Position numbers and translations under genes: made by a program
Shown here: positions 34,539 through 51,930 of the stretch, in pieces
Layout: every line of letters begins with the position of its first letter
Numbering within the stretch: position 1 is the first letter of the stretch
The notes under the pieces: model-generated
What the model was told of the DNA's origin: nothing
The model's database searches: none
What the model saw: the letters and a program-made list of their open reading frames with translations, nothing else
Assembly (NCBI GenBank): GCA_964649715.1
Contig: CAZYTH010000002.1
Coordinates: forward strand, 2,248 to 66,247
DNA: 64,000 nucleotides
Direction: 5' to 3'
Origin: an uncultured Candidatus Saccharibacteria bacterium
GTDB lineage: Bacteria; Patescibacteriota; Minisyncoccia; Phycocordibacterales; UBA12445

Positions 34539-35273
34539 ATGGTTTCAGAGTTGGAATTCAAAATTAAATTTGTTTTGGAGTATTTAAGGAATCAAATACA
34601 GGATGAAAATCAGCCTGAAACTTTTGAAATTGACCAACAAAAATTTGATTTTGATAATAGTCGTGGTGGCATCATTCCTAAGAATGTAGAGGTTAGAGAT
34701 ATTGTTCGGCAAATTACCTCAGGGAATGAACTGGGTGAAATACTTGATCACATATCAGATATAACAAATGGAGAATTTAAGTTAGTATCGATTGCGCCAA
34801 TAAGAAAGGTTGATTCAAGAAATCCAATAGAACTTACTTTTGGTACCAAAAAGTTGAAAGTGGCACCAGCCCATACTCAGTGGTCTAGTGGATATAATGC
34901 TTGGACCGTTGAATACCACCCCGAAAAGAAGCATTTACAAAAGAAAATCCTATCCAATAAGCAGGTTTTTAATTTTTACATAAACAAGGATCGAGAACTT
35001 ACCCAAGTGCTACCAGATAGACCTGAAAAGACAATTAAAATTACTAAAAAACAGTACGCATTTTTTGAATTACTCGTTGAATATGACCACTCCTATGCAC
35101 CAGCAAAAGACATTGCGGAAACTATTAAAAGCCCTACGAAGTATGTTCAAAATTTAGCACAACTACTTAAAAAGGAAATAGATAAAAACTTTGTCGGTAT
35201 TACAGGAAAAGAATTCATTGAATCGGATGATGGGTATAGGATAGGTAGAAAAGTGAAACTCATATTGAAGTAG
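34539..35273 (+). CDS. protein with C-terminal OmpR/PhoB-type winged-helix DNA-binding domain
   Basis: ITKKQYAFFELLVEYDHSYAPAKDIAETIKS...VQNLAQLLKKEID...GYRIG resembles Trans_reg_C. N-terminal 150 aa unassigned. Confidence 0.45.
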   Translation: MVSELEFKIKFVLEYLRNQIQDENQPETFEIDQQKFDFDNSRGGIIPKNVEVRDIVRQITSGNELGEILDHISDITNGEFKLVSIAPIRKVDSRNPIELTFGTKKLKVAPAHTQWSSGYNAWTVEYHPEKKHLQKKILSNKQVFNFYINKDRELTQVLPDRPEKTIKITKKQYAFFELLVEYDHSYAPAKDIAETIKSPTKYVQNLAQLLKKEIDKNFVGITGKEFIESDDGYRIGRKVKLILK

Positions 35274-36391: not shown

Positions 36392-36577
36392 ATGAAAAAA
36401 ACAAGCAAAGTAAGTCAATACTGGAAAAGTAGAGCAACCTTCATAAACCAACATTTAGGTGCTGAGGTACAACCACTTACTCCCTTAGAACTAAGAGAAA
36501 TGCATAGTCGAAGCATTAAGAGAGGAATTAGCCATAGAAAATTAAATCCAAAGTTATATGAAAACCCAACCAAATAA
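36392..36577 (+). CDS. small basic protein immediately upstream of and overlapping the recombinase start
   Basis: 61 aa, lysine/arginine-rich. Speculative recombination directionality factor or leader peptide. Confidence 0.2.
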   Translation: MKKTSKVSQYWKSRATFINQHLGAEVQPLTPLELREMHSRSIKRGISHRKLNPKLYENPTK

Positions 36578-38192
36578 CCCAATCAAGTACTTTATTTATG
36601 CCCGCAAGTCGAGCGAGGATAAAGAAAAACAAGTCGCATCTATTGAGGACCAGTTAGAAGTTCTTAATAAAATCGCAATACAAAATAACATTAAAATAGT
36701 ACATGTATATGAGGAATCACAATCAGCCAAAAAACCAGGCAGACCACAATTCACCGCCATGCTCGAACGGATTATTAAAGGCGATGCTAGTGGGATACTT
36801 TGTTGGAAACTTGATCGCCTGGCTCGCAATCCTATTGATGGTGGGCAGATAAACTGGCTACTTCAACAAGGAACAATACAAATTATTAAAACAAACGAGC
36901 GAGATTACTACCCAAGCGACAACGTTTTGATGATGCAAGTTGAACTTGGTATGGCTAACCAATACATTCGAGACCTTTCATCAAATGTAAAGCGTGGGCT
37001 CGCTAAGAAATTACGTGATGGCTGGTTACCAGGTCTTGCACCTATCGGATACTTAAACGATCGAACAAACGAAAAAGGAAATCGCACAGTTATGAATGAT
37101 CCTGATAGATTTGTACTGGTTCGTAGAATATGGGACCAAGCACTTACTGGTAATTACACAGTGCCTCAGTTATGGGAGTACTCGAGAAAAGAATTGAATC
37201 TAACAACCGTACTAAGACGAAAGTCTGGAGGTAAGCCATTATCAAAAAGCGCAATGTATTCATTACTCACTAACCCGTTTTATTACGGAATGATTCGGTA
37301 TCCTGAAAAGACTGGTGAACTACATCAAGGTAAACACGAACCAATGATAACGGTCCAAGAATTTGACCGTGTACAAGACATAATTGGCACTCGTAACGCA
37401 ATACGACCTAAGAATGAAGTGTTTGCTTTTACTGGTCTTATGAGGTGCGGTAACTGCGGTTGCTCAGTAACTGCTGAAAGTAAAATAAAGCGATGTAAGA
37501 ATGGAAATTCGCATTACTATACCTACTACCATTGCACTAAAAAGAAAGTCGACATTAAATGCGATCAAAAAAGTGTAGAGGTACGTAAACTAGAGACTAT
37601 GTTCAAAGAGAAATTGATGAACTTGCAAATCTCAGATGCGTTCAAAGCATGGGCAATAAAACATTTGCACGAAATAAGAACCACTGAGGCAGATAGCAAC
37701 AAAATAGCAATGAGTGTGGCATCCAAAGAACTCGCAACCGTGTCAGAGCAACTAAGAGCACTAACTTTGAATTACACATCACCACAGAACATAAACAGAT
37801 CGATAATGACCGAGAGTGAATACTTGGAATTTAAGAATGACCTATTAAAAAAGAAAGAGACCGCAGAGAGTCGAGTTAAAACAACATCAGACGAACTCGA
37901 GTCTTGGGTTGAACTTAGTGAAAAAACTTTTAATCTAGCGTTCTATGCGAGTGTTTGGTTTGAAAAAGGAACGAACGAACAACGTAAAGCAATAATGTCG
38001 TGTTTAGGCTCGAACCTCACACTGAAAGATGGAAAAATCCAACTATACATGCATCCTTTCATTGAAACGCTTATTCAAAACAAAAAATATGTCACTATTG
38101 AGAATCCAAAGGTTAGAACCTCTGAAAACTCAATGTACATAAGACAAAACGCCGCTTTAGGCGACGTTTCATCAAAGTGGCTCCGCGGGTAG
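36558..38192 (+). CDS. large serine recombinase (resolvase-domain integrase)
   Basis: YFIYARKSSEDKE...IEDQ resolvase N-domain with catalytic Ser. Recombinase domain and CGNCGC...YYHC zinc-ribbon. The 3' end overlaps tRNA-Asn. Confidence 0.85.
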   Translation: MKTQPNNPIKYFIYARKSSEDKEKQVASIEDQLEVLNKIAIQNNIKIVHVYEESQSAKKPGRPQFTAMLERIIKGDASGILCWKLDRLARNPIDGGQINWLLQQGTIQIIKTNERDYYPSDNVLMMQVELGMANQYIRDLSSNVKRGLAKKLRDGWLPGLAPIGYLNDRTNEKGNRTVMNDPDRFVLVRRIWDQALTGNYTVPQLWEYSRKELNLTTVLRRKSGGKPLSKSAMYSLLTNPFYYGMIRYPEKTGELHQGKHEPMITVQEFDRVQDIIGTRNAIRPKNEVFAFTGLMRCGNCGCSVTAESKIKRCKNGNSHYYTYYHCTKKKVDIKCDQKSVEVRKLETMFKEKLMNLQISDAFKAWAIKHLHEIRTTEADSNKIAMSVASKELATVSEQLRALTLNYTSPQNINRSIMTESEYLEFKNDLLKKKETAESRVKTTSDELESWVELSEKTFNLAFYASVWFEKGTNEQRKAIMSCLGSNLTLKDGKIQLYMHPFIETLIQNKKYVTIENPKVRTSENSMYIRQNAALGDVSSKWLRG

Positions 38193-38252
38193 GATTCGAA
38201 CCTACGACCAACCGCTTAACAGGCGGTCGCTCTACCACTGAGCTACCGCGGA
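38178..38252 (-). tRNA. tRNA-Asn (anticodon GUU), CCA encoded
   Basis: Reverse complement tccgcggtagctcagtggtagagcgaccgcctGTTaagcggttggtcgtaggttcgaatcctacccgcggagcca folds as a cloverleaf. 7-bp acceptor stem; ctgttaa anticodon loop. Confidence 0.85.
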
Positions 38253-38461: not shown

Positions 38462-39730
38462 ATGAATTTTGAAGGACCGCAATCAATCCCAAGTAGTATA
38501 GAGAAAAAAAAGACTCAAGGGGAAAGGGAGCAATGGGAAGAAGAAATAAAAGATATTATTGAGATTGAGGATAATTTGGCGGAGATGCAGATATCCGAGG
38601 AATTAAAACAGAAATTATCTTTAAGTATTTCTAGGACAAAAGAAAAATATAAGAAGAATGTTTTGGACGTTGTTGAAAAACTAGGAAAGACCGAGAGGGA
38701 GGCCAGGGTAATGGTTATTGATAATTTAAAAAAGAAAATAGATTTTGTTAGAGAAAATGAAGAAAGGATATTGAGATTGTCTCGAGCAATAGAATCTTCC
38801 GTTGTTTTGGGTGAATTTATTGCTTTGAAATTTGAAATTACGGAATTACTTTCTAATGCTAGGGATGAATATAAGATAGAGAAAAACGAGGATATTTTTG
38901 AGTATCTAATATCTGATGAACTTGCTGAGTCAATAAAAAATCAATCATATAGTGTTTCAGAAAGGGAAACATATTTACCACTTGTTGATGAACGAGAGAC
39001 AGAAGATGGTGGTGATGGATGGTTACGAGGGGATGGTAATAGTGAGAGTTCGGTGGTATTGTTGGACACGTTGCATCACGGAGAAAAAGTTTTCTATCAA
39101 AAGGTAATGATAAGAAAGATGATAGAACTTTTCGAAGAGACACCAAAAGAAAAACAAGTCGAATCCCTTACAAACATCGATTTTTTTATAAACGCTATTT
39201 CCGATTCGTCTTGTAACGGTCTCAATTTTTCTTATGAGAGAATAAAAAAGAGAGATAAAAAAGATGCGACAGGGAATATTTTAGAAAAAGAGTTATCTAT
39301 TAGAATAAATGGAGATTCTGCTGTTTTAATTTTTGTTCCAGAGGAGGATATGATATATCAATGGGGTGTTACTGAGGACACAGAAGGTTTTGATTTCCTA
39401 ACACCGCTTAATAGCGAAAACCCACATAAAATAAAAGATATAAAAAACGGGTTTAAGTTGGGTTTTGGAATGTTGGAGTATGGTGAGAGGCTTATTGGTT
39501 CGGAAGGGGTTTTTAATTTTCCGAGTTCAGCTCAGGTTGTAATGGCGTCTGACGGTATTTTTGATTCCAAAAATATTTTGTCCGGAAATGAGAATACTGT
39601 TCAGAAATTAAAAAATTTTATTGAACAAAGCCGCTCGGGAGGGGACAACAACTTGGCTTTATATCTAAAGAAAATTTTCAGTGACCCGAAGACAAAATTA
39701 GAGGATGATACGACAATATTAGAAGTTTAA
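38462..39730 (+). CDS. coiled-coil protein with C-terminal PP2C/SpoIIE-like phosphatase domain
   Basis: DTLHHG (GHG-like), MASDGIFD and terminal EDDTTILEV match PP2C/SpoIIE motif order. Confidence 0.45.
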   Translation: MNFEGPQSIPSSIEKKKTQGEREQWEEEIKDIIEIEDNLAEMQISEELKQKLSLSISRTKEKYKKNVLDVVEKLGKTEREARVMVIDNLKKKIDFVRENEERILRLSRAIESSVVLGEFIALKFEITELLSNARDEYKIEKNEDIFEYLISDELAESIKNQSYSVSERETYLPLVDERETEDGGDGWLRGDGNSESSVVLLDTLHHGEKVFYQKVMIRKMIELFEETPKEKQVESLTNIDFFINAISDSSCNGLNFSYERIKKRDKKDATGNILEKELSIRINGDSAVLIFVPEEDMIYQWGVTEDTEGFDFLTPLNSENPHKIKDIKNGFKLGFGMLEYGERLIGSEGVFNFPSSAQVVMASDGIFDSKNILSGNENTVQKLKNFIEQSRSGGDNNLALYLKKIFSDPKTKLEDDTTILEV

Positions 39731-41659: not shown

Positions 41660-43534
41660 ATGAACATCAGAAAGATGCCACTTATAAATTATACAATGGT
41701 TTTTGTCCTATCTTTTCTCTTGATGGTGTCTTTGTTCAATATTTCTTTTGATATAGAAATTTATATATTTTATTTAGCTCTTTTGGGTGCATTCCCAATA
41801 TTTAAAGATTCTGTAAAAGATATTTTTTTTGAACACAAAATAACACTCGATGTTTTTAACAGTTTCGTGTTAGTTGTCGCATTTCTGGTAGAGGAGCCCA
41901 GGTCAGCTGCTTTTATAGTTTTAATGCTTTCTTTCGCAGATATTTTGGAAGGCAAAACAATTTTTAGGGCCAAAAGGGCGATAGAGGAATTATTAAAACT
42001 CAATCCATCGGAAGCGATCATAGAAAAAGATGGTTCTCATGTTGTGGTAAATATAAAAGAAGTTCGGGGTGGCGATATTGTTGTGGTAAAAAATGGTTCA
42101 AGGATACCAGTTGACGGTAAAATAATATTTGGGAAAGCTATGATAAACGAGTCTTCTGTGAGTGGCGAATCAGTACCTGTTTTTAAGGTTGTCGGTGAAG
42201 ATGTTTTCGGGTCCACACTAATTGAGTCGGGTCTTATAAAAATATCAGCCACAAGAGTGGGGGAGGATTCTACACTAGAAAGAATGGCATTCCTCATAAA
42301 GAAGGCTTCTCTGTATAAATCAAAACCGGAAAAGATCGCCGATAGATTTGCCTCTTTTTTCTTACCATTTGTTGTTTTTTTGGGCATATTGGCTTTTTAT
42401 TTAACGGGAGATATAAAAGCTGTTATCTCAATATTTTTGGTTGCTTGTGCCGATGATATGGCAGTAGCTATTCCGCTTGCAATAACCGCATCTATGGGGA
42501 GAGCGGCAAAGAGAGGGGTAATAATAAAAGGGGGAGAGTGGTTGGAAAATATTTCCAAAATAGATTCTTTTGTTTTTGATAAAACAGGAACATTAACATA
42601 TGGAATTTTGAAACTCGAAGAATTTTATCTGAGTCCGGAAGTTTCAGAAGAAAAATTTTGGAAAAGTGTGGCCATTGCAGAAAAATTTTCAGAGCATCCA
42701 TTTGGGCGGGCTATTTTTAAAGAGGCGGTATCTAGGATTTCGGATATACCAGATCCAGAAAGTTTCGAGATTCATGAAAACAATGGCGTGTCTGCTTTGT
42801 GTGGTAAAGAAGAAGTCGTTATTGGTAATGAAAAGCTGTTTGATAAATTTGATATTAAGTTAGAAAAAGATATCAAGAGGATGATTGACCTGAGAATGGG
42901 TCTTGGCGGGAAAACCGTTTCTCTCGTGGCTCTTAATGGGGAGATCATGGGTTTTATTGTGGTGTCGGATGTTATTCACAATACAGCGAAAGAAAGCATA
43001 GATAGAATTAGGGGACTGGGAATAAGGGATATCATTATGTTTACAGGAGACAACGAGTCAACGGCAAAAGAAGTTTCCGAAAAACTTGGCATAGGAAAAT
43101 ATGAATATAAAATGACTCCGGAAATGAAATTAGAACTGTTAGACAAAATGATTAAGGATAAAAAAGTTGCAATGGTGGGAGATGGAATAAACGACGCCCC
43201 ATCGCTTGCAAGGGCTGATGTGGGTATTGCTATGGGTGGAAATGGTATAACTGTTGCCACGGAATCGGCAGACATTATAATTGTTGGCGGTCGGCTCGAT
43301 AGGATACCTGAAATGATAGAATTAGGAAGAAAGACCATGTCTGTCATAAGATTAGATATCGCAATATGGTTTGTGACTAATTTTGTAGGTTTTTCTCTTG
43401 TTTTTGCCGGTGTTATTGGTCCGATGTCAGCTGCTTTTTATAATTTTATAACAGACTTTATTCCTCTTATAAATTCGGCTAGATTATTCGGAGAAAAAAG
43501 GCAGGTTGAACAAAAAAACACCCAACCAATATAA
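41660..43534 (+). CDS. P-type ATPase with P1B-like core, lacking HMA domain; CPC motif replaced by A-D-D
   Basis: DKTGTLT, TGDN and MVGDGINDAPSLA motifs. VACADDMAVAIPLAITASMGRAAKRGVIIKGGEWLE aligns to the CopA [12 protein letters not shown]...[17 protein letters not shown]. Confidence 0.75.
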   Translation: MNIRKMPLINYTMVFVLSFLLMVSLFNISFDIEIYIFYLALLGAFPIFKDSVKDIFFEHKITLDVFNSFVLVVAFLVEEPRSAAFIVLMLSFADILEGKTIFRAKRAIEELLKLNPSEAIIEKDGSHVVVNIKEVRGGDIVVVKNGSRIPVDGKIIFGKAMINESSVSGESVPVFKVVGEDVFGSTLIESGLIKISATRVGEDSTLERMAFLIKKASLYKSKPEKIADRFASFFLPFVVFLGILAFYLTGDIKAVISIFLVACADDMAVAIPLAITASMGRAAKRGVIIKGGEWLENISKIDSFVFDKTGTLTYGILKLEEFYLSPEVSEEKFWKSVAIAEKFSEHPFGRAIFKEAVSRISDIPDPESFEIHENNGVSALCGKEEVVIGNEKLFDKFDIKLEKDIKRMIDLRMGLGGKTVSLVALNGEIMGFIVVSDVIHNTAKESIDRIRGLGIRDIIMFTGDNESTAKEVSEKLGIGKYEYKMTPEMKLELLDKMIKDKKVAMVGDGINDAPSLARADVGIAMGGNGITVATESADIIIVGGRLDRIPEMIELGRKTMSVIRLDIAIWFVTNFVGFSLVFAGVIGPMSAAFYNFITDFIPLINSARLFGEKRQVEQKNTQPI

Positions 43535-43564
43535 GGTTCGGTGTTTTTTTGATTTTTATTTTAG

Positions 43565-44128
43565 TTATATTATTTTCTCTATATCTCCAGACAAACCAGA
43601 AGCATCTCCTTCGACTCCATCGATGTTTCCTATTATGTTTGTGACGTCTCCTTTGAGGTTGGTAGCATTTCCGAATATATTACCCACATTTCCGCTTAGG
43701 TTTGTTATGTTTCCCGATAGTTTGCTTACGTCACCATATAAATCAGAAACATCACCGATAATTCTCGTGGTATCTCCGTCGATATGCGTAACATCTCCTC
43801 TTACGTTTGTAACATCTCCCTTGATGGTTGTAACGTCTCCGATTATCCCACTTACATCGCCACGTATTCCACTTACGTCGCCTTTTATGTTGCTAAGGTC
43901 TCCTACGATGTGTGTTACGTCTCCTCGTACGTTGCTTGCGTCTCCAAATACCCCACTTATATCTCCTTTGATATTACCCACATTTCCCTTGATTTTGTGA
44001 ACTCCTATGTCTCCATAAATATTTGCTACGCTTCCCTCCACTTCTCCGAAATTCCCCCAAATATTTTTGTGTAGGCCAGTTATTTTTTCTGTGTTCGTTT
44101 GATCTCTTTTGATTATTCTCGTTAACAT
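43565..44128 (-). CDS. tandem heptad-repeat protein, about 20 copies of [S/T]-x-I-x-G-[D/N]-[V/I]
   Basis: 21-nt DNA periodicity. Convergent with the ATPase and shares a hairpin terminator at 43535-43565. No signal peptide seen. Confidence 0.45.
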   Translation of the reverse strand: MLTRIIKRDQTNTEKITGLHKNIWGNFGEVEGSVANIYGDIGVHKIKGNVGNIKGDISGVFGDASNVRGDVTHIVGDLSNIKGDVSGIRGDVSGIIGDVTTIKGDVTNVRGDVTHIDGDTTRIIGDVSDLYGDVSKLSGNITNLSGNVGNIFGNATNLKGDVTNIIGNIDGVEGDASGLSGDIEKII

Positions 44129-44269
44129 TTTTTTGAATTAATTCATTAATTGTAGATATAAATATACCAGTAAGAGGTTTTTTTTTCAACAAAATTAAAT
44201 TAAAATTAGCAAATGAATAAATATTAAAAAAGTGCTATAATCTAAAGCAATTCAATTAGTTTAAAGAAT

Positions 44270-45805
44270 ATGAAAAAATTAATTTATATCCTTGTCCTTG
44301 TCGTTGTCGTTTCCGTTTCTTTCTTTGTTTATTACCGGAGCAATGAAAGTGATATCTATGATTACGTTGTCGCGGAAAAAGGTAGTGTGGTACAGGAGGT
44401 TAGTGTCACTGGAAAAGTTAAACCTGTTTCAAGTGTGTCTTTGGCTTTTGATAGAACAGGCAAGATAACCAAATTTAATTTTGATGTTGGAGACCATGTA
44501 GTTGCTGGTGATATTTTGGTAACAATAGACAACACAGAACTTTATTCAACCCTAAATGAATCTCTTGCAAGTTTAAGGGCATCGGAGGCGAGGTTATTGG
44601 AAATAAAGAAAGGTGCCAAAGAAGAGGAAATTATTGTGTCACAGGCAAGAGTGTCTGGGGCGGACAATTCCGTAAGAGATTCAAAAATAGGTTTGGTTAA
44701 TTTTATAAAAGACTCATACACAAAGGCGGATGATTCAATAAGGAATAAAATAGATAAATTTTTTAGCAATCCAAGAAGCGCTAATCCTTCTGTTAATTTT
44801 GTTATAACTGATACTGTTTTGGGTTATGAAATAGAATTCAATCGTTTTGTTGTGGAGGAAAGATTAAAGAAGTGGGCAACGTCGATTGGCAACCTCTCCC
44901 TAGAAAGTGATCTTTCTGTCGCATTATTTGAAGCGAAAGATAATTTAAGCTTGATAAAGGGATTTTTAGATAAAGTTTCTCTTGCTGTTAACTCGCTTGT
45001 GCCAACATCTGAATTATCTCAAGCGACAATAGATTCTTACAAATCAGATACGTCGACAGCTAGAACAAATATTAATGCTTCGATATTAAGTTTGGCCTCA
45101 GCCGATGAAAAGTTGAGTACCGCTGAATCATCTCTTTTGATTGCGCAAAAAGAACTTGCGTTAAAACTATCAGGGAGTACTCCCGAGCAAATAAAAGCGC
45201 AAGAAGCTAACGTGGAGCAGGCTAAGGCAAGAGCGGACAATATTAGATCTCAAATAAACAAAACCATACTAAAATCTCCGATAAGTGGAGTGGTTACAAG
45301 AAGGAATTATGAGGTAGGAGAAATAGTAGCGATAAACTCTTCCGTTATTTCTGTAATATCAGATTTAAGTTTAGAGATAGAGGCCAATGTCTCAGAAGCA
45401 GATATTGCAAAAGTAAAAATAGGAGATATCGCAAGAGTCACTCTCGATGCTTATGGAGAGGAGATTAACTTTCCTGCTACTGTTGCCAAAGTAGATCCCG
45501 CAGAGCTAGTTATCGAGGGGATTGCTACTTATAAGGTCAGTTTTAGATTGATTGATAATGACAATAGAATTAAATCTGGAATGACAGCAAATATTGATAT
45601 TCTTACAAACAAAAAAGACAACGTTCTGACTATTTCCCAAAGATCCACTTTTACAAGAGAACAGACGAGATATGTTTTGGTGAAGGGGGTTGACGGTGTT
45701 CCCGCAGAAAGAGCGGTTGTTGTTGGATTACGTGGCTCAGATGGTTTGTTTGAGGTTATCTCCGGTATATCAGAGGGCGATTTTGTGTTAGCTTTTCCAA
45801 ATTAA
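44270..45805 (+). CDS. HlyD/MacA-like periplasmic adaptor (membrane fusion protein)
   Basis: N-terminal TM, biotinyl-lipoyl-like, long coiled-coil, beta-barrel and MP domains. Followed by ABC ATPase and permease genes. Confidence 0.6.
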   Translation: MKKLIYILVLVVVVSVSFFVYYRSNESDIYDYVVAEKGSVVQEVSVTGKVKPVSSVSLAFDRTGKITKFNFDVGDHVVAGDILVTIDNTELYSTLNESLASLRASEARLLEIKKGAKEEEIIVSQARVSGADNSVRDSKIGLVNFIKDSYTKADDSIRNKIDKFFSNPRSANPSVNFVITDTVLGYEIEFNRFVVEERLKKWATSIGNLSLESDLSVALFEAKDNLSLIKGFLDKVSLAVNSLVPTSELSQATIDSYKSDTSTARTNINASILSLASADEKLSTAESSLLIAQKELALKLSGSTPEQIKAQEANVEQAKARADNIRSQINKTILKSPISGVVTRRNYEVGEIVAINSSVISVISDLSLEIEANVSEADIAKVKIGDIARVTLDAYGEEINFPATVAKVDPAELVIEGIATYKVSFRLIDNDNRIKSGMTANIDILTNKKDNVLTISQRSTFTREQTRYVLVKGVDGVPAERAVVVGLRGSDGLFEVISGISEGDFVLAFPN

Positions 45806-45808
45806 AAA

Positions 45809-46552
45809 ATGGATTTTGTAAATGGACACAAAGAACCAATAATTATTTGTGATAATATTTGTAAGGTTTATAAAGACGATGGGGTGGAAACACCCGCTCT
45901 TTCCGGTATTTCTTTTTCTGTAAAACCCGGGGAATTTTTAGCTGTAATGGGACCTTCTGGTTCGGGAAAATCAACGCTACTCCATATTTTGGGTTTTTTG
46001 GATAGACAGAGCGGGGGAAATTATTTTTTTGATGGAAGATCAATGGACGAATTGAATGACGAGGAGCTTGCTATGACCAGAAACAAAAAAATGGGTTTTA
46101 TTTTTCAATCTTTTAATCTTCTGCCAAGGACTACTGTTTTAGATAACGTAAAATTGCCACTTCTTTATTCTGGTATTGTTGAAAGCGAATGGGAAAGTCG
46201 AGCTATTCGTGCAATAGAATCCGTTGGTTTGTCTCACAGGATATATCATGAGTCTTCTCAACTTTCAGGAGGGGAAAAACAAAGAGTTGCCATCGCAAGA
46301 GCTTTGGTTCTTAAACCTCAGGTTATTTTCGCAGATGAGCCAACTGGCAATCTTGACTCAAAATCAGGGCAGAAGGTAATGGAAATAATTCAAAAACTTA
46401 ACGAAGAAGAAGGGCATACAATACTTCTCATAACCCACGAGACATATACGGCTGAGCATGCGGAAAGGATTATTCATGTTAGGGATGGTAAAATAGAGAG
46501 AGACGAAAAAGTTTTAAATAGATTAAGGGCGGATAATGGTTTTAAAAAATGA
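45809..46552 (+). CDS. ABC transporter ATP-binding protein (MacB/LolD type)
   Basis: GPSGSGKST Walker A, LSGGEKQRVAIARAL signature, IFADEPTGNLD Walker B. Confidence 0.8.
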   Translation: MDFVNGHKEPIIICDNICKVYKDDGVETPALSGISFSVKPGEFLAVMGPSGSGKSTLLHILGFLDRQSGGNYFFDGRSMDELNDEELAMTRNKKMGFIFQSFNLLPRTTVLDNVKLPLLYSGIVESEWESRAIRAIESVGLSHRIYHESSQLSGGEKQRVAIARALVLKPQVIFADEPTGNLDSKSGQKVMEIIQKLNEEEGHTILLITHETYTAEHAERIIHVRDGKIERDEKVLNRLRADNGFKK

Positions 46553-47784
46553 GAATAAGACACACCATTAAGACAGCGGCAAAAGGATTGAGTTCCAATA
46601 AACCAAGGTCTGGTTTAACGATTCTTGGTATTGTTATCGGAATCACTTCGATAATGATGGTTATGTCGTTGGGCCAAGGAGCTCAAGATTTGATTCTGGG
46701 CCAAATACAAGGTTTGGGCGCCAAGACTATTGCGATAGTCCCAGGAAGACAACCAACAGGAGCTGTTTCCGCAGCTCAAACAATGAGCGACTCTTTAAAA
46801 CAAAAAGATCTTGAGCTTCTTAAAAATAAATCAAATGTGCCATATGCGATCAATGTTGAGCCGATAAATATAGGAGGTGGCGTCGCTGCTTTTGAGAACC
46901 AAACTTTTCAGTTGAGTATTTTTGGTTCTTCTGAATTCGTCCAAAAAGTTTATGACATGTCTCTTGATAGTGGACGCTTTATTGACGATTATGATGTTAA
47001 GAATAAGTCTTATGTCGTGGTTATCGGTTCTAGGGTTAAAGAAGAATTATTTGGAGGTGATGAGGCTATTGGTCAAAAAATAAAACTAAAAGGAATAAAT
47101 TTTAAAGTTATTGGTGTGCTATCTAAAAAGGGGCAAGGACTTGTAAATTTTGATGAGGTGGCGGTTATTCCTTACTCTACTGCCCAGCAGTACATATTTG
47201 GGATAAAACATTTTAATAGAATAATTGTTGAAATTGATAATGAGATAAATTTAATGGCATCTGTCCGGGATATAGAAAATACACTAAGAAACTCTCACAA
47301 TATAACAGATCCCGAAAAAGATGATTTTTATTTAATGACACAAGATGCCGCTATGGAACAAGTGGCAACGATTATGGATGTTCTTACTCTTCTACTTGCT
47401 GCAATTGCTGCAATATCTCTTGTAGTTGGTGGTGTGGGAATTATGAATATTATGCTTGTATCTGTAACAGAGAGAACCAGAGAAATTGGTTTAAGAAAGG
47501 CGCTTGGAGCAACAAGTAAAGATATAATGTTGCAGTTTCTGATCGAAGCAATAATGCTTACGGGTGTTGGTGGTATTATTGGAATTATTCTTGGTTCCGC
47601 ACTATCTTTTGTCACCTCTGTATTTTTAAGTAATTATGCTGGTCTTAACTGGGTTTTTAATTTTCCTGTGACAGCAGCTATTTTGGGTATTGCGGTGTCA
47701 TCGGTCGTGGGGGTTATTTTCGGTCTTTATCCTGCGAGACAAGCTTCTTTAAAGAGCCCGATGGAAGCGCTGAGATATGAATAG
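46549..47784 (+). CDS. ABC transporter permease (MacB-like periplasmic domain plus FtsX fold)
   Basis: N-terminal TM, about 220-aa periplasmic domain, C-terminal FtsX-type three-TM bundle with ERTREIGLRKALGA. Confidence 0.75.
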   Translation: MRIRHTIKTAAKGLSSNKPRSGLTILGIVIGITSIMMVMSLGQGAQDLILGQIQGLGAKTIAIVPGRQPTGAVSAAQTMSDSLKQKDLELLKNKSNVPYAINVEPINIGGGVAAFENQTFQLSIFGSSEFVQKVYDMSLDSGRFIDDYDVKNKSYVVVIGSRVKEELFGGDEAIGQKIKLKGINFKVIGVLSKKGQGLVNFDEVAVIPYSTAQQYIFGIKHFNRIIVEIDNEINLMASVRDIENTLRNSHNITDPEKDDFYLMTQDAAMEQVATIMDVLTLLLAAIAAISLVVGGVGIMNIMLVSVTERTREIGLRKALGATSKDIMLQFLIEAIMLTGVGGIIGIILGSALSFVTSVFLSNYAGLNWVFNFPVTAAILGIAVSSVVGVIFGLYPARQASLKSPMEALRYE

Positions 47785-48734: not shown

Positions 48735-49103
48735 ATGGACAAAAATATTAAGATTAATGCTAAGGTTTTTTATTTGCCGACAAGTAGAAGGCCAAAAAGT
48801 CTTGGCCCTGTCCCTTTGGGTATAAAAGAATATTGGCACGTTGGTATTCTTTACAACAACAAGGTTTATGAAAATTTTAGTGCCGGTAAGTATTTGGTTT
48901 CGGATGAGGCCAAAAGGAGACCTGAATTAGAAGAAATGGGTGCTGAGTGGCAAGATGTATTTTTGAAAGAGCCTGATGGTCTTGATAACTTTTTGAAAGA
49001 TGGATTGCCTTGCGATAATTATGTTGAAAAGGTTTTGGGGTTAACACTTACGGGTGGGAAAGCAGTTGTAAAAAGGAATTTAACCTTAGAGACAAGTAAG
49101 TAA
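48735..49103 (+). CDS. hypothetical protein
   Basis: 122-aa ORF; no domain recognised. Confidence 0.3.
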   Translation: MDKNIKINAKVFYLPTSRRPKSLGPVPLGIKEYWHVGILYNNKVYENFSAGKYLVSDEAKRRPELEEMGAEWQDVFLKEPDGLDNFLKDGLPCDNYVEKVLGLTLTGGKAVVKRNLTLETSK

Positions 49104-50865: not shown

Positions 50866-51930
50866 ATGTCTATTCCCGAACTTTTGAATTATTTAAACTA
50901 TTTAATTGGTGTTGTTTTTTTAGTTTTTATTTTAGCAAACGCATATATACTTTATAGAACTGAATATTATTCACCGAAGGAGAAGAAAAGATGGATTTTA
51001 ATGTTTATAACGATATTCATCCTGTCTTTTTTTACTAAGGGCAATAATCTATTCAATGGTATTTTTGAGTTTTTGGATTTGTTTGGTCTAATGTTTATTC
51101 TTCCGATTTTGTTTTCTGCGAAAGTGGTTTCCATTCTCTATCACAGTTCTGATGATTTTAATTTGAATGAGAATGTGGAAAAACAACGAGCAAGGAAAAA
51201 AGACCTCTTTTCTGTTTATTTATTTATACTCATGTTGTTTTTTGTTCCCACTTATAATAGTGGTGGTAGTGTTACTGCGGGTAATTGTTTTTATTCTTAC
51301 CAAATAAGATGTAGTGGATTAACCTTGCCAGGAATTTTTGATAGCCCATTATGTATTGGCTTTATTGTAAGCAGTTCATATGGTGAGTCTAAAAATTGCG
51401 ATATAACGATACCCGAGTTGATGCCGATACCAACGATACTAAATGAATCCCTAAAACCAGGTGGTACTTCGGAAGATAAAAATCCAGATAATACTGTTGT
51501 TGATATTTCTAATTGGCAAACTTATAAAAACGATAAATTTGGTTTTGAGTTTAGATACCCAAACAACATGAAGATTGTTTTTGATGATATTAAGATGATC
51601 TATTCTGGTGGAAATGCTTGGTACAGACTACAAATAATGGATGGTGATTCTAATCAAAAACCTTTCTTATCTTTTGAAATTGATGCAGACGGTTATGGCC
51701 CACTGTCTATTCAAAAAAGATTTACACTAAAAGAATTGGACATCGGAGGATTTGTTGTTAATTCAATTGAAACAATAGAAGATGTGACTAGTATTGATAA
51801 TGATATGTGGATAGATTCCCACTACGCTAAAAATAATAAAAATTATTGGTGGCAGTTTGAATTTCAATCGGGTAACATAGATTATGATCTTATTTTTAGA
51901 GAAATATTGAAGTCTTTTAAAATTAAATAA
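50866..51930 (+). CDS. hypothetical membrane-anchored protein with Cys-rich extracytoplasmic domain
   Basis: Three TM helices then soluble domain. Confidence 0.35.
   Translation: MSIPELLNYLNYLIGVVFLVFILANAYILYRTEYYSPKEKKRWILMFITIFILSFFTKGNNLFNGIFEFLDLFGLMFILPILFSAKVVSILYHSSDDFNLNENVEKQRARKKDLFSVYLFILMLFFVPTYNSGGSVTAGNCFYSYQIRCSGLTLPGIFDSPLCIGFIVSSSYGESKNCDITIPELMPIPTILNESLKPGGTSEDKNPDNTVVDISNWQTYKNDKFGFEFRYPNNMKIVFDDIKMIYSGGNAWYRLQIMDGDSNQKPFLSFEIDADGYGPLSIQKRFTLKELDIGGFVVNSIETIEDVTSIDNDMWIDSHYAKNNKNYWWQFEFQSGNIDYDLIFREILKSFKIK

Follow-up and report, generated by a model that had tools for sequence, protein, structure and literature searches.

A conserved heptad-repeat gene on a Saccharibacteria contig and its large, unnamed protein family

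What does a locus built almost wholly from seven-residue repeats encode, and is it a gene at all? The question is raised by a short locus within a 64,000-nucleotide stretch of DNA from an uncultured Candidatus Saccharibacteria bacterium (assembly GCA_964649715.1, contig CAZYTH010000002.1, positions 2,248 to 66,247), hereafter called the window. An earlier sequence-only reading had assigned the locus to a minus-strand open reading frame (ORF) of about 20 tandem heptads and had predicted a regular beta-solenoid. Comparison with homologous sequences identifies this ORF as a genuine protein-coding gene under purifying selection. As for its product, the best explanation as a whole, which joins a conserved gene, a beta-rich rod and a binding role, is put forward tentatively and given slightly less than even weight.

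The gene and the parts of its product are the following.

43565 to 44128, minus strand: coding sequence of the heptad-repeat protein, with an ATG start, 187 amino acids and the stop codon at 43565-43567 (ORF list and translation).
43580 to 44062, minus strand: array of 23 heptads of the form [ILV]-x-G-[DN]-[VIA]-[ST]-x, amino acids 23-183 (column counts and lag-7 autocorrelation against shuffles).
44048 to 44098, minus strand: N-terminal lead-in ("N-cap") motif NTEKITGLHKNIWGNF, amino acids 11-27, common to a subset of family members.
43994 to 43999, minus strand: His-Lys insertion, amino acids 44-45, giving one nine-residue unit (heptad layout).
43568 to 43579, minus strand: C-terminal tail EKII, four residues (translation and comparison with family alignments).

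The repeat proposed earlier, [S/T]-x-I-x-G-[D/N]-V behind a minus-strand start codon, was recovered with a few more units than claimed. Column counts in the 187-residue protein give I14, V5 and L5 at the first heptad position, a variable second position, glycine in 23 of 23 heptads at the third and D16 and N6 at the fourth. The remaining positions are V12, I5 and A3 (fifth), S8, T8 and G4 (sixth), and N9, G5 and others (seventh). The two-residue insertion is the only break in the array. Amino acid identity at a lag of seven residues is 0.41, compared with 0.10 +/- 0.024 in 5000 shuffles (maximum 0.20), and it stays at 0.38-0.36 at lags of 14, 21 and 28. The 21-nucleotide periodicity described for the DNA is also real. 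Its lag-21 nucleotide identity is only 0.51, and Tandem Repeats Finder reports merely 2.5 copies at 84% in the gene; the DNA repeats are therefore regarded as old and diverged. The protein has a mass of 19 kDa, a pI of 4.84 and a net charge of -8, and contains neither cysteine nor proline. Its N-terminus, MLTRIIKRDQTNTEK, has no hydrophobic stretch, in agreement with the earlier remark on signal peptides; this was judged by eye, no predictor being used. Read in the same way, the protein has no signal peptide and no membrane segment.

Two lines of evidence bear on the coding strand. The first comes from the repeat itself. Pairwise comparison of 19 in-register repeat units gives identities of 0.55/0.69/0.37 at codon positions 1/2/3, serine within one repeat column is encoded by both AGY and TCN codons, and aspartate by both GAT and GAC. 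Since third codon positions agree least and the serine and aspartate codons are mixed, the repeat is kept at the protein level. The second line of evidence is an orthologue. A scan of species-representative genomes with the single protein returned one close relative, in Patescibacteria group bacterium UBA12445 (DOAO01000006.1). This protein of 188 residues is 66% identical, without internal gaps and with one extra residue at the C-terminus (...GNIEEIAK compared with ...GDIEKII), and it keeps the 23 heptads as well as the His-Lys insertion ("RIHKIKG"). The two genes differ at 52/28/111 sites in codon positions 1/2/3. In the sense frame, dN is 0.25, dS is saturated and stop codons are absent. 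The other five frames contain stop codons and yield finite dS values of 0.19-1.14 and dN/dS ratios of 0.27-2.8; the antisense-frame stops occur in one or other orthologue, and 4-21 codon pairs were dropped for them.

The opposite strand carries a frame that could have been taken for the gene.

43506 to 44000, plus strand: antisense ORF of 164 amino acids with Pro/Ser/Thr-rich repeats, a by-product of the repeat, starting with TTG inside the adjacent ATPase gene.

This open frame is what could be said for reading the repeat as non-coding DNA or the plus-strand ORF as the real gene. The divergence at third positions is found in the minus frame alone, the alternative frames carry stop codons and an unsaturated dS, the G-D-V frame is kept in every homologue, and the antisense start lies within another gene. 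The comparison with the orthologue refutes both versions, which are left with practically no probability. The antisense ORF is an artefact of the repeat, as the sequence-only reading had proposed, and is explained by the codon make-up of the repeat.

The locus in UBA12445 is collinear with the window: HlyD-like, ABC ATPase and MacB permease genes stand on one side, a P-type ATPase gene on the other. Nucleotide identity between the two species is 65-71%. The heptad gene has been passed on by vertical descent in two Patescibacteria species at least. In an independent sequencing run (SRR11845623), a contig with 99.9% nucleotide identity encodes the identical protein. Because this contig and the gapless orthologue agree, the copy number of the repeat neither slips nor varies out of frame. 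The checks proposed with the earlier reading, on copy number and on homologues in Patescibacteria, thus both came out in favour of a protein-coding repeat. In an exact-sequence cluster look-up, neither the 187-residue protein nor its orthologue was found, and the HlyD-like neighbour was absent from the records as well.

The relatives of the protein reach well beyond these two genomes. A word-indexed search gave 33 proteins, all 33 in the G-D-V frame. An exhaustive search of 1.84 billion cluster representatives gave 3294 matches with E<=1e-3; 447 of them reach E<=1e-10 and 19 reach E<=1e-30. Of 176 relatives fetched, at least 104 have arrays with one glycine per heptad; the remainder are ordinary glycine-poor heptad proteins. 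The family is defined here by at least six tandem heptads with the residue order invariant glycine, Asp/Asn, aliphatic, Ser/Thr, any, aliphatic, any. With its 23 heptads, the protein is a chromosomal member of this large unnamed heptad-array family. In a profile of 80 members, glycine at 100% and Asp/Asn at 100% are fixed by the search pattern itself; within it, D accounts for 78% and N for 22%, and the other columns show V 62%, S 59% and T 33%, and I 47% and L 35%. One variable position is glycine in 30% of the heptads, and at the second R, S and K predominate. Net charge averages -0.6 per heptad over the arrays.

Family members range from 95 to 1540 residues and have many architectures. Equivalents of the lead-in are found in P0002 (NTEQVTGLHPNVRGDF), P0025 (ITGLHDGVWGNF), P0063 (NTEKVEGLHPEVWGDF) and P0130 (NTKNVRGIHYAIWGDF), and a lead-in of the type N-T-E-K-[IV]-x-G-[LI]-H-x-x-[IV]-W-G-[DN]-F also occurs in P0060 and in the UBA12445 orthologue. 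Many small phage-type members share a C-terminal motif, GNxDxCE[IL]TxxERxxG[IV]x[IV]xDLI (P0013, P0016-P0019, P0021-P0023, P0025, P0028, P0029 and P0032). Family alignments show this cysteine motif to be absent from the 187-residue protein and its orthologue, which places the protein in a subgroup without the C-terminal module, like P0002, P0012 and P0030.

Larger and variant members were also noticed. The 1305-residue P0034 has at least three long arrays with Lys/Glu-rich linkers between them, and its first and second arrays are each preceded by the lead-in L-[IV]-N-D-[ED]-N-I-T-G-D-K-S-N-I-Y-G-D-A. In P0060 (377 residues), the N-cap and array are joined to a cysteine-rich, zinc-finger-like CxxCxGxG segment, with a sub-threshold BSD2_CRD match, and to a hydrophobic C-terminus; this protein may be membrane-anchored. 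Residues 40-172 of P0091, a 996-residue protein of the subtilase family, form about 19 heptads G-D-I-x-P-F-[HYW], which retain the Gly-Asp-Ile start and each have a proline and an aromatic residue. Cysteine replaces valine in each heptad (GDCSxLx) of P0036, P0098, P0121 and a podovirus protein (L003:5953-6354), and this cysteine column could be metal-binding or a disulfide ladder.

Existing resources say little about such arrays. Pfam returns coiled-coil families below threshold and nothing else (Baculo_PEP_C at 32.9 bits with a cut-off of 38, DUF1664, LPP and Laminin_II). PADLOC, in which defence and anti-defence annotation was sought, gives no match for the protein or for four relatives. Literature searches for repeat strings such as GDVSGI and for heptapeptide or beta-solenoid terms retrieved no description of the family. 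NCBIfam has no model reaching its cut-off, and its sub-threshold match to RiPP_TigB (NF047709) suggests a different kind of protein, a TigB-like repeat precursor of a radical-SAM-modified ribosomal peptide. The E-values of this match (3e-8 for the protein, 9e-17 for P0034) and an adjacent ABC transporter speak for such a precursor. The score of 33.5 bits is set against a cut-off of 70, the radical SAM motif CxxxCxxC is absent from every ORF of at least 150 residues in the window, and the family spans many lengths and architectures. TigB itself has 60 residues with up to five TIGSVS copies and depends on the radical SAM enzyme TigE (PMC10878394). This candidate was rejected for its sub-cut-off score and the missing radical SAM motif, and is considered highly improbable.

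Where do the relatives occur? When an alignment of small members was run against IMG/VR, at least 87 confirmed matches at 79 loci were obtained. Some viral contigs carry several copies, with six loci on one contig of 115 kb. For instance, IMGVR_UViG_3300049009_000811 (115.7 kb) has separate heptad-array loci L069, L070, L071, L075 and L076, and IMGVR_UViG_3300009503_000022 (110 kb) has L060, L065 and L067. The presence of three to six array genes on a large viral contig suggests paralogue expansion within phage genomes. Array genes are also often located at both ends of the same viral contig (L017/L021 on IMGVR_UViG_3300032893_000155, L015/L038 and L062/L068), a pattern expected if the assembly of a circular genome breaks inside the repeat.

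The phage members stand next to genes of replication, recombination and regulation. One member is encoded in a complete 40.5-kb podovirus genome, near the gene of a single-stranded-DNA-binding protein (SSB). Among the contexts read in detail, one combines DNA polymerase A and ParB with HNH endonucleases, a methyltransferase and an integrase, and another has a DUF5906 protein together with a PD-(D/E)XK nuclease and a DEAD helicase. Others include SSB with RecT, DnaB with ribonucleotide reductase, and long runs of small unidirectional ORFs. The top PHROG families among 124 neighbour ORFs are methyltransferases, helicases, ligase, repressors and regulators, exonuclease VIII, Bet and endolysin/holin; head or tail families are not among the top 25. 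Small members are thus, by their genomic context, standalone genes in the early, replication, recombination and regulatory regions of phages. All-against-all clustering of 599 neighbour ORFs revealed no recurrent partner gene, the top neighbour family being present at 4 of 60 loci. Since no neighbour recurs and virion genes are missing from the top neighbour families, the family appears to act alone and inside the cell.

The fold of the array was approached through modelling and sequence composition. Two AlphaFold2 runs with different alignments both show strands and no helix in the array; in the first model, a short helix occurs at residues 183-185, in the C-terminal tail. The second model has a five-residue strand (V-S-x-I-x) every seven residues, with Gly-Asp as the turn. 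Beta-solenoids (AlbG, MfpA, Qnr, SV2 luminal domains, tailspikes, pectate lyases and RTX proteins) predominate among the weak structural neighbours found by Foldseek. A monomeric, elongated, non-helical and beta-rich rod is considered about evenly balanced between right and wrong.

Several observations weigh against such a rod. Confidence was low in both AlphaFold runs (pLDDT 59.7/58.7, pTM 0.35/0.37), and Foldseek searches, twice against the PDB and once against BFVD, gave nothing below E = 0.04, with TM-scores of 0.1-0.3. The valine and Ile/Leu positions are spaced 3/4 throughout, like the a/d core of a coiled coil, and would point to opposite faces of one five-residue strand, which is awkward for a simple two-sheet solenoid. 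The protein has no super-period of 14, 21 or 28 residues, and 53 arrays (569 heptads) compared with shuffles show none of two, three or four heptads at any position. In the PDB, the family profile matches trimeric coiled coils best (gp26 at 1e-8, SlaB at 1.9e-8, then cavin-1, sigma-1 and fibritin), while the grass antifreeze beta-roll 3ULT is matched at E = 0.13 with 15 bits. Related G-D-V-T-T-L-Q arrays are found where a trimeric autotransporter adhesin has its stalk, and ahead of a BclA C-terminal domain. The earlier prediction of a regular beta-solenoid is plausible and no more: the models called for by the sequence-only reading are strand-rich and free of helix in the array, at low confidence and with no close structural neighbour. 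That reading was silent on the 3/4 hydrophobic spacing, on the matches to trimeric coiled coils and on the large, phage-frequent family.

The main rival is a long homotrimeric alpha-helical coiled coil of about 24 nm for 161 residues, with Val at a, Ile/Leu at d, Gly at f and Asp/Asn at g. It would serve as a fibrous rod or spacer like the stalks of phage tail needles, fibritin, Lpp and the S-layer protein SlaB. The 3/4 spacing is perfect and both hydrophobic positions are beta-branched or aliphatic, residues which at a and d favour trimers. All top sequence matches to solved structures are trimeric coiled coils, the sub-threshold Pfam matches are coiled-coil families, and phrog_19577, whose Bacillus-phage member has K-[SAG]-D-V-[ST]-x-L heptads, is matched at 1e-17. 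SlaB has glycine at the same heptad position in several heptads, G-D-V-T-T-L-Q arrays stand at stalk positions in adhesins and fibres, and the heptads are all equivalent, without a super-period and with spacings that are multiples of seven in about 97% of cases across the family.

Composition and indels speak against helices. Glycine, present in every heptad here and throughout the family as defined, with 30% at a second position, counts against a coiled coil because an exposed coiled-coil position gives no reason for invariance. The Pace-Scholtz helix penalty of the array is 0.61 kcal/mol per residue; SlaB, gp26 and the Bacillus phage protein have 0.44-0.48 and a YadA-head array has 0.52, so that the helix propensity of the array lies below every comparator, the beta-roll included. 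A, L, E, K, Q and R account for just 15% of the array and glycine for 20%. Discontinuities typical of coiled coils are the stutter (+4) and the stammer (+3). Neither occurs in the 97 family proteins compared, whose 17 irregular spacings are +1 (12), -1 (4) and +2 (1), and the two-residue His-Lys insertion is conserved in the orthologue. AlphaFold usually draws coiled coils as long helices, and neither run placed a helix in the array. Proline is present in every heptad of the relative P0091 (GDIxPFx). The invariant glycine, the poor helix propensity, the proline-bearing relative and the indels of one residue all argue against helices. The coiled coil is judged the less probable fold and remains a serious rival to the beta reading.

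A beta-rich product could also arise between chains. In an oligomeric beta-fibre of intertwined chains, for instance a triple beta-helix or a beta-bracelet-like fold, every layer would be built from one short strand of each chain, with the Gly-Asp turn leading from layer to layer; single-chain modelling cannot reproduce such a fold. The five-residue strand and two-residue turn of the second model suit this arrangement, as does low confidence, expected if contacts are between chains. The equivalent heptads and the related arrays in trimeric fibre proteins are also consistent with it, and the delta fibre of Orsay virus is an existing example, with five-residue strands, three-residue loops and a conserved central E/D/N (PMC7565637). 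The hydrophobic residues are at positions 1 and 4 here, compared with strand positions 1, 3 and 5 in the beta-bracelet. Foldseek gave no structural match, and the phage relatives lie outside virion modules. A fibre of this kind is considered unlikely.

Returning to the monomeric beta-rich rod, a mechanism can be outlined. Each heptad would give a short strand V-S-x-I-x, and the invariant Gly-Asp/Asn would form a tight turn between strands. The valine and Ile/Leu side chains would face the interior, leaving the two variable positions exposed in a regular surface pattern. Such a rod would act by binding, as a rigid acidic scaffold or as a decoy for a nucleic-acid-handling or other partner protein. 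Phages would use rod proteins of this type early in infection, and the chromosomal copy may have a housekeeping or phage-interaction role. A binding rod is suggested because the protein is acidic, conserved and without signal peptide or membrane segment, and because its relatives are standalone genes in phage early regions. That the rod works by binding, as a scaffold or decoy in the manner of pentapeptide-repeat proteins, is possible by analogy and in itself rather doubtful; the lack of a conserved partner gene at the 60 phage loci weighs against it.

A more far-reaching proposal is that the heptad is the unit of an undescribed non-helical repeat fold, which phages would deploy as an acidic early mimic or decoy and of which Patescibacteria would keep a chromosomal, vertically inherited copy. 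Despite the coiled-coil-like spacing, the fold could be a solenoid with equivalent units or an intertwined beta-fibre. The small soluble phage protein would bind or mimic a host macromolecule, for instance as a nucleic-acid mimic or an anti-defence decoy. With its several parts taken together, this proposal is regarded as improbable.

The neighbouring genes suggest yet another role. Divergently transcribed from the heptad gene are genes of a HlyD-like protein (44270-45805), an ABC ATPase (45809-46552) and a MacB/FtsX permease (46549-47784). The product might thus be an RTX-like Gly/Asp-rich beta-roll exported by these neighbours, e.g., as an episymbiont adhesin. The three genes are kept next to the orthologue, and the protein is acidic and lacks both cysteine and a signal peptide, as is usual in type I secretion substrates. 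The transporter is of the MacB type, with a separate ATPase, a MacB periplasmic core domain and FtsX, and not a HlyB-type exporter. Conserved gene order is to be expected in any case between species of 65-71% nucleotide identity. The phage relatives have no transporter neighbours, and the repeat is a heptad, without the RTX nonapeptide (GGxGxDxUx) or a Pfam match. Export as an RTX-like protein is accordingly rated very unlikely.

On the other side, the heptad gene converges with a P-type ATPase gene (41660-43534, plus strand), and two further features lie near the boundaries of the gene.

43511 to 43551 (about), no strand assigned: bidirectional terminator-like hairpin between the convergent heptad and P-type ATPase genes, with an A-run on one side and a T-run on the other.
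44161 to 44189, minus strand: weak promoter-like match TTGAAA-17-TATATT with a TG extension, 33 nucleotides upstream of the ATG (consensus scan).

The convergent arrangement and the shared terminator, both noted earlier, are confirmed: the hairpin folds as RNA at -21.9 kcal/mol (z = -5.55), a value that none of 200 shuffled sequences matched, and a terminator scan gives a site overlapping it. The ATPase stop codon (43532-43534) lies in the loop, and one arm of the stem consists of the last ATPase codons. Promoter-like sites are no commoner than in shuffled sequence, two being found and 4.3 expected by chance. No Shine-Dalgarno sequence was seen at the heptad gene or at the other 18 genes inspected (19 gene starts, 2031-60131), and since none of the 19 has one, its absence at the heptad gene is uninformative. 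The leaders of these 19 gene starts are A/T-rich and without a Shine-Dalgarno-like purine run, and the genome seems to initiate translation without such a sequence.

Other features of the window lie further away. A large serine recombinase gene (36558-38192, plus strand) with Resolvase, Recombinase and Zn_ribbon_recom domains overlaps at its end 15 bp of an opposite-strand tRNA-Asn gene (38178-38252, minus strand). An integrated element could have its edge at this junction, which lies about 5 kb from the heptad gene. The equivalent position in the UBA12445 locus, compared by position alone, has an ORF of 552 residues (L008 10844-12502). Nearby plus-strand ORFs of 122-422 residues (38462-39730, 34539-35273, 50866-51930 and 48735-49103) gave no Pfam match at E<=1e-5.

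In its own genome the heptad gene is an ordinary conserved hypothetical, yet it exposes a family of thousands of proteins for which Pfam, NCBIfam and PADLOC hold no repeat-specific model and PHROGs gives only a partial match to phrog_19577. The small phage members recur in early and replication regions, often in several copies per genome, which makes them candidates for a role in host takeover or anti-defence; moreover, they are short and simple to test. A single solved structure would locate the boundary between trimeric coiled coils and beta-rolls of 7/14 residues, and would show whether one invariant glycine per heptad switches the fold.

Among known systems, pentapeptide-repeat proteins such as MfpA, Qnr and AlbG are right-handed quadrilateral beta-helices that mimic DNA. 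Like the heptad protein, they are small, acidic and cytoplasmic and consist of almost nothing but short repeats with Asp/Asn and aliphatic residues. They are the top Foldseek neighbours of both models, at a non-significant level (TM 0.15-0.24, E>0.1). Their period is five instead of seven, and Pfam Pentapeptide (PF00805) gives no match at E<=1. The same holds for the left-handed beta-helix of hexapeptides (PF00132, period 6). As the sequence-only reading had stated, the repeat is not a classical hexapeptide, pentapeptide or ice-nucleation repeat, no such Pfam match being found at E<=1, and RTX gives none either. The Orsay delta-fibre beta-bracelet is similar in its five-residue strand, its short Asp/Asn/Glu loop and its equivalent repeated units; it differs in a period of eight, hydrophobic residues at 1/3/5, a pentameric state and its place in a eukaryotic virus capsid, and has no sequence or structure match to the heptad protein. 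TigB-type precursors share short Ile/Gly/Val/Ser repeats and the sub-threshold NCBIfam match, and differ in having 60 residues with TIGSVS instead of 187 residues of heptads and in the radical SAM partner, which has no counterpart in the window.

Two groups of known proteins come closer. The top-scoring sequence matches in the PDB and PHROGs are trimeric coiled-coil stalks (the P22-like tail needle gp26 4LIN, the Sulfolobus S-layer protein SlaB 8QOX, Lpp, fibritin and the SPO1-like Bacillus phage protein of phrog_19577). They likewise have a period of seven, with Val at a, Ile/Leu at d, Asp before a and Ser/Thr after it. Glycine amounts to 3-4% in these stalks, whereas it is invariant and makes up 20% of the array here, and helix-favouring residues account for 35-42% compared with 15%. 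The stalks are extracellular or virion fibres with additional domains, in contrast to the small, stand-alone and predicted cytoplasmic heptad protein. The match to phrog_19577 ("minor head protein", E = 1e-17) is limited to profile positions 40-180 of 378. Its Goe3 member has 425 residues, few glycines and a large C-terminal domain, and that C-terminal part is left unmatched by the heptad protein.

The second group comprises the beta-rolls of YadA heads (Hep_Hag, PF05658) and of grass ice-recrystallisation-inhibition proteins (PF21300, 3ULT). They have seven-residue sub-repeats with one glycine each, and small polar and aliphatic residues, like the heptad protein. P0081, a relative of the G-D-V type, reaches 27.8 bits against the grass model PF21300 (cut-off 30), and distant phmmer matches with SHAEG-type repeats (P0174, P0055, P0153 and P0062) are true YadA_head arrays. 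The heptad protein itself has no Pfam match to PF05658 or PF21300. Beta-roll units have 14-15 residues composed of two unlike halves (the PF05658 model is a 27-residue double repeat), whereas the heptads here are alike. Hydrophobic residues are spaced i, i+2 in the beta-rolls and i, i+3/i+4 here. Because its matches reach both groups, the array takes a place in sequence space between trimeric coiled coils and beta-rolls of 7/14 residues.

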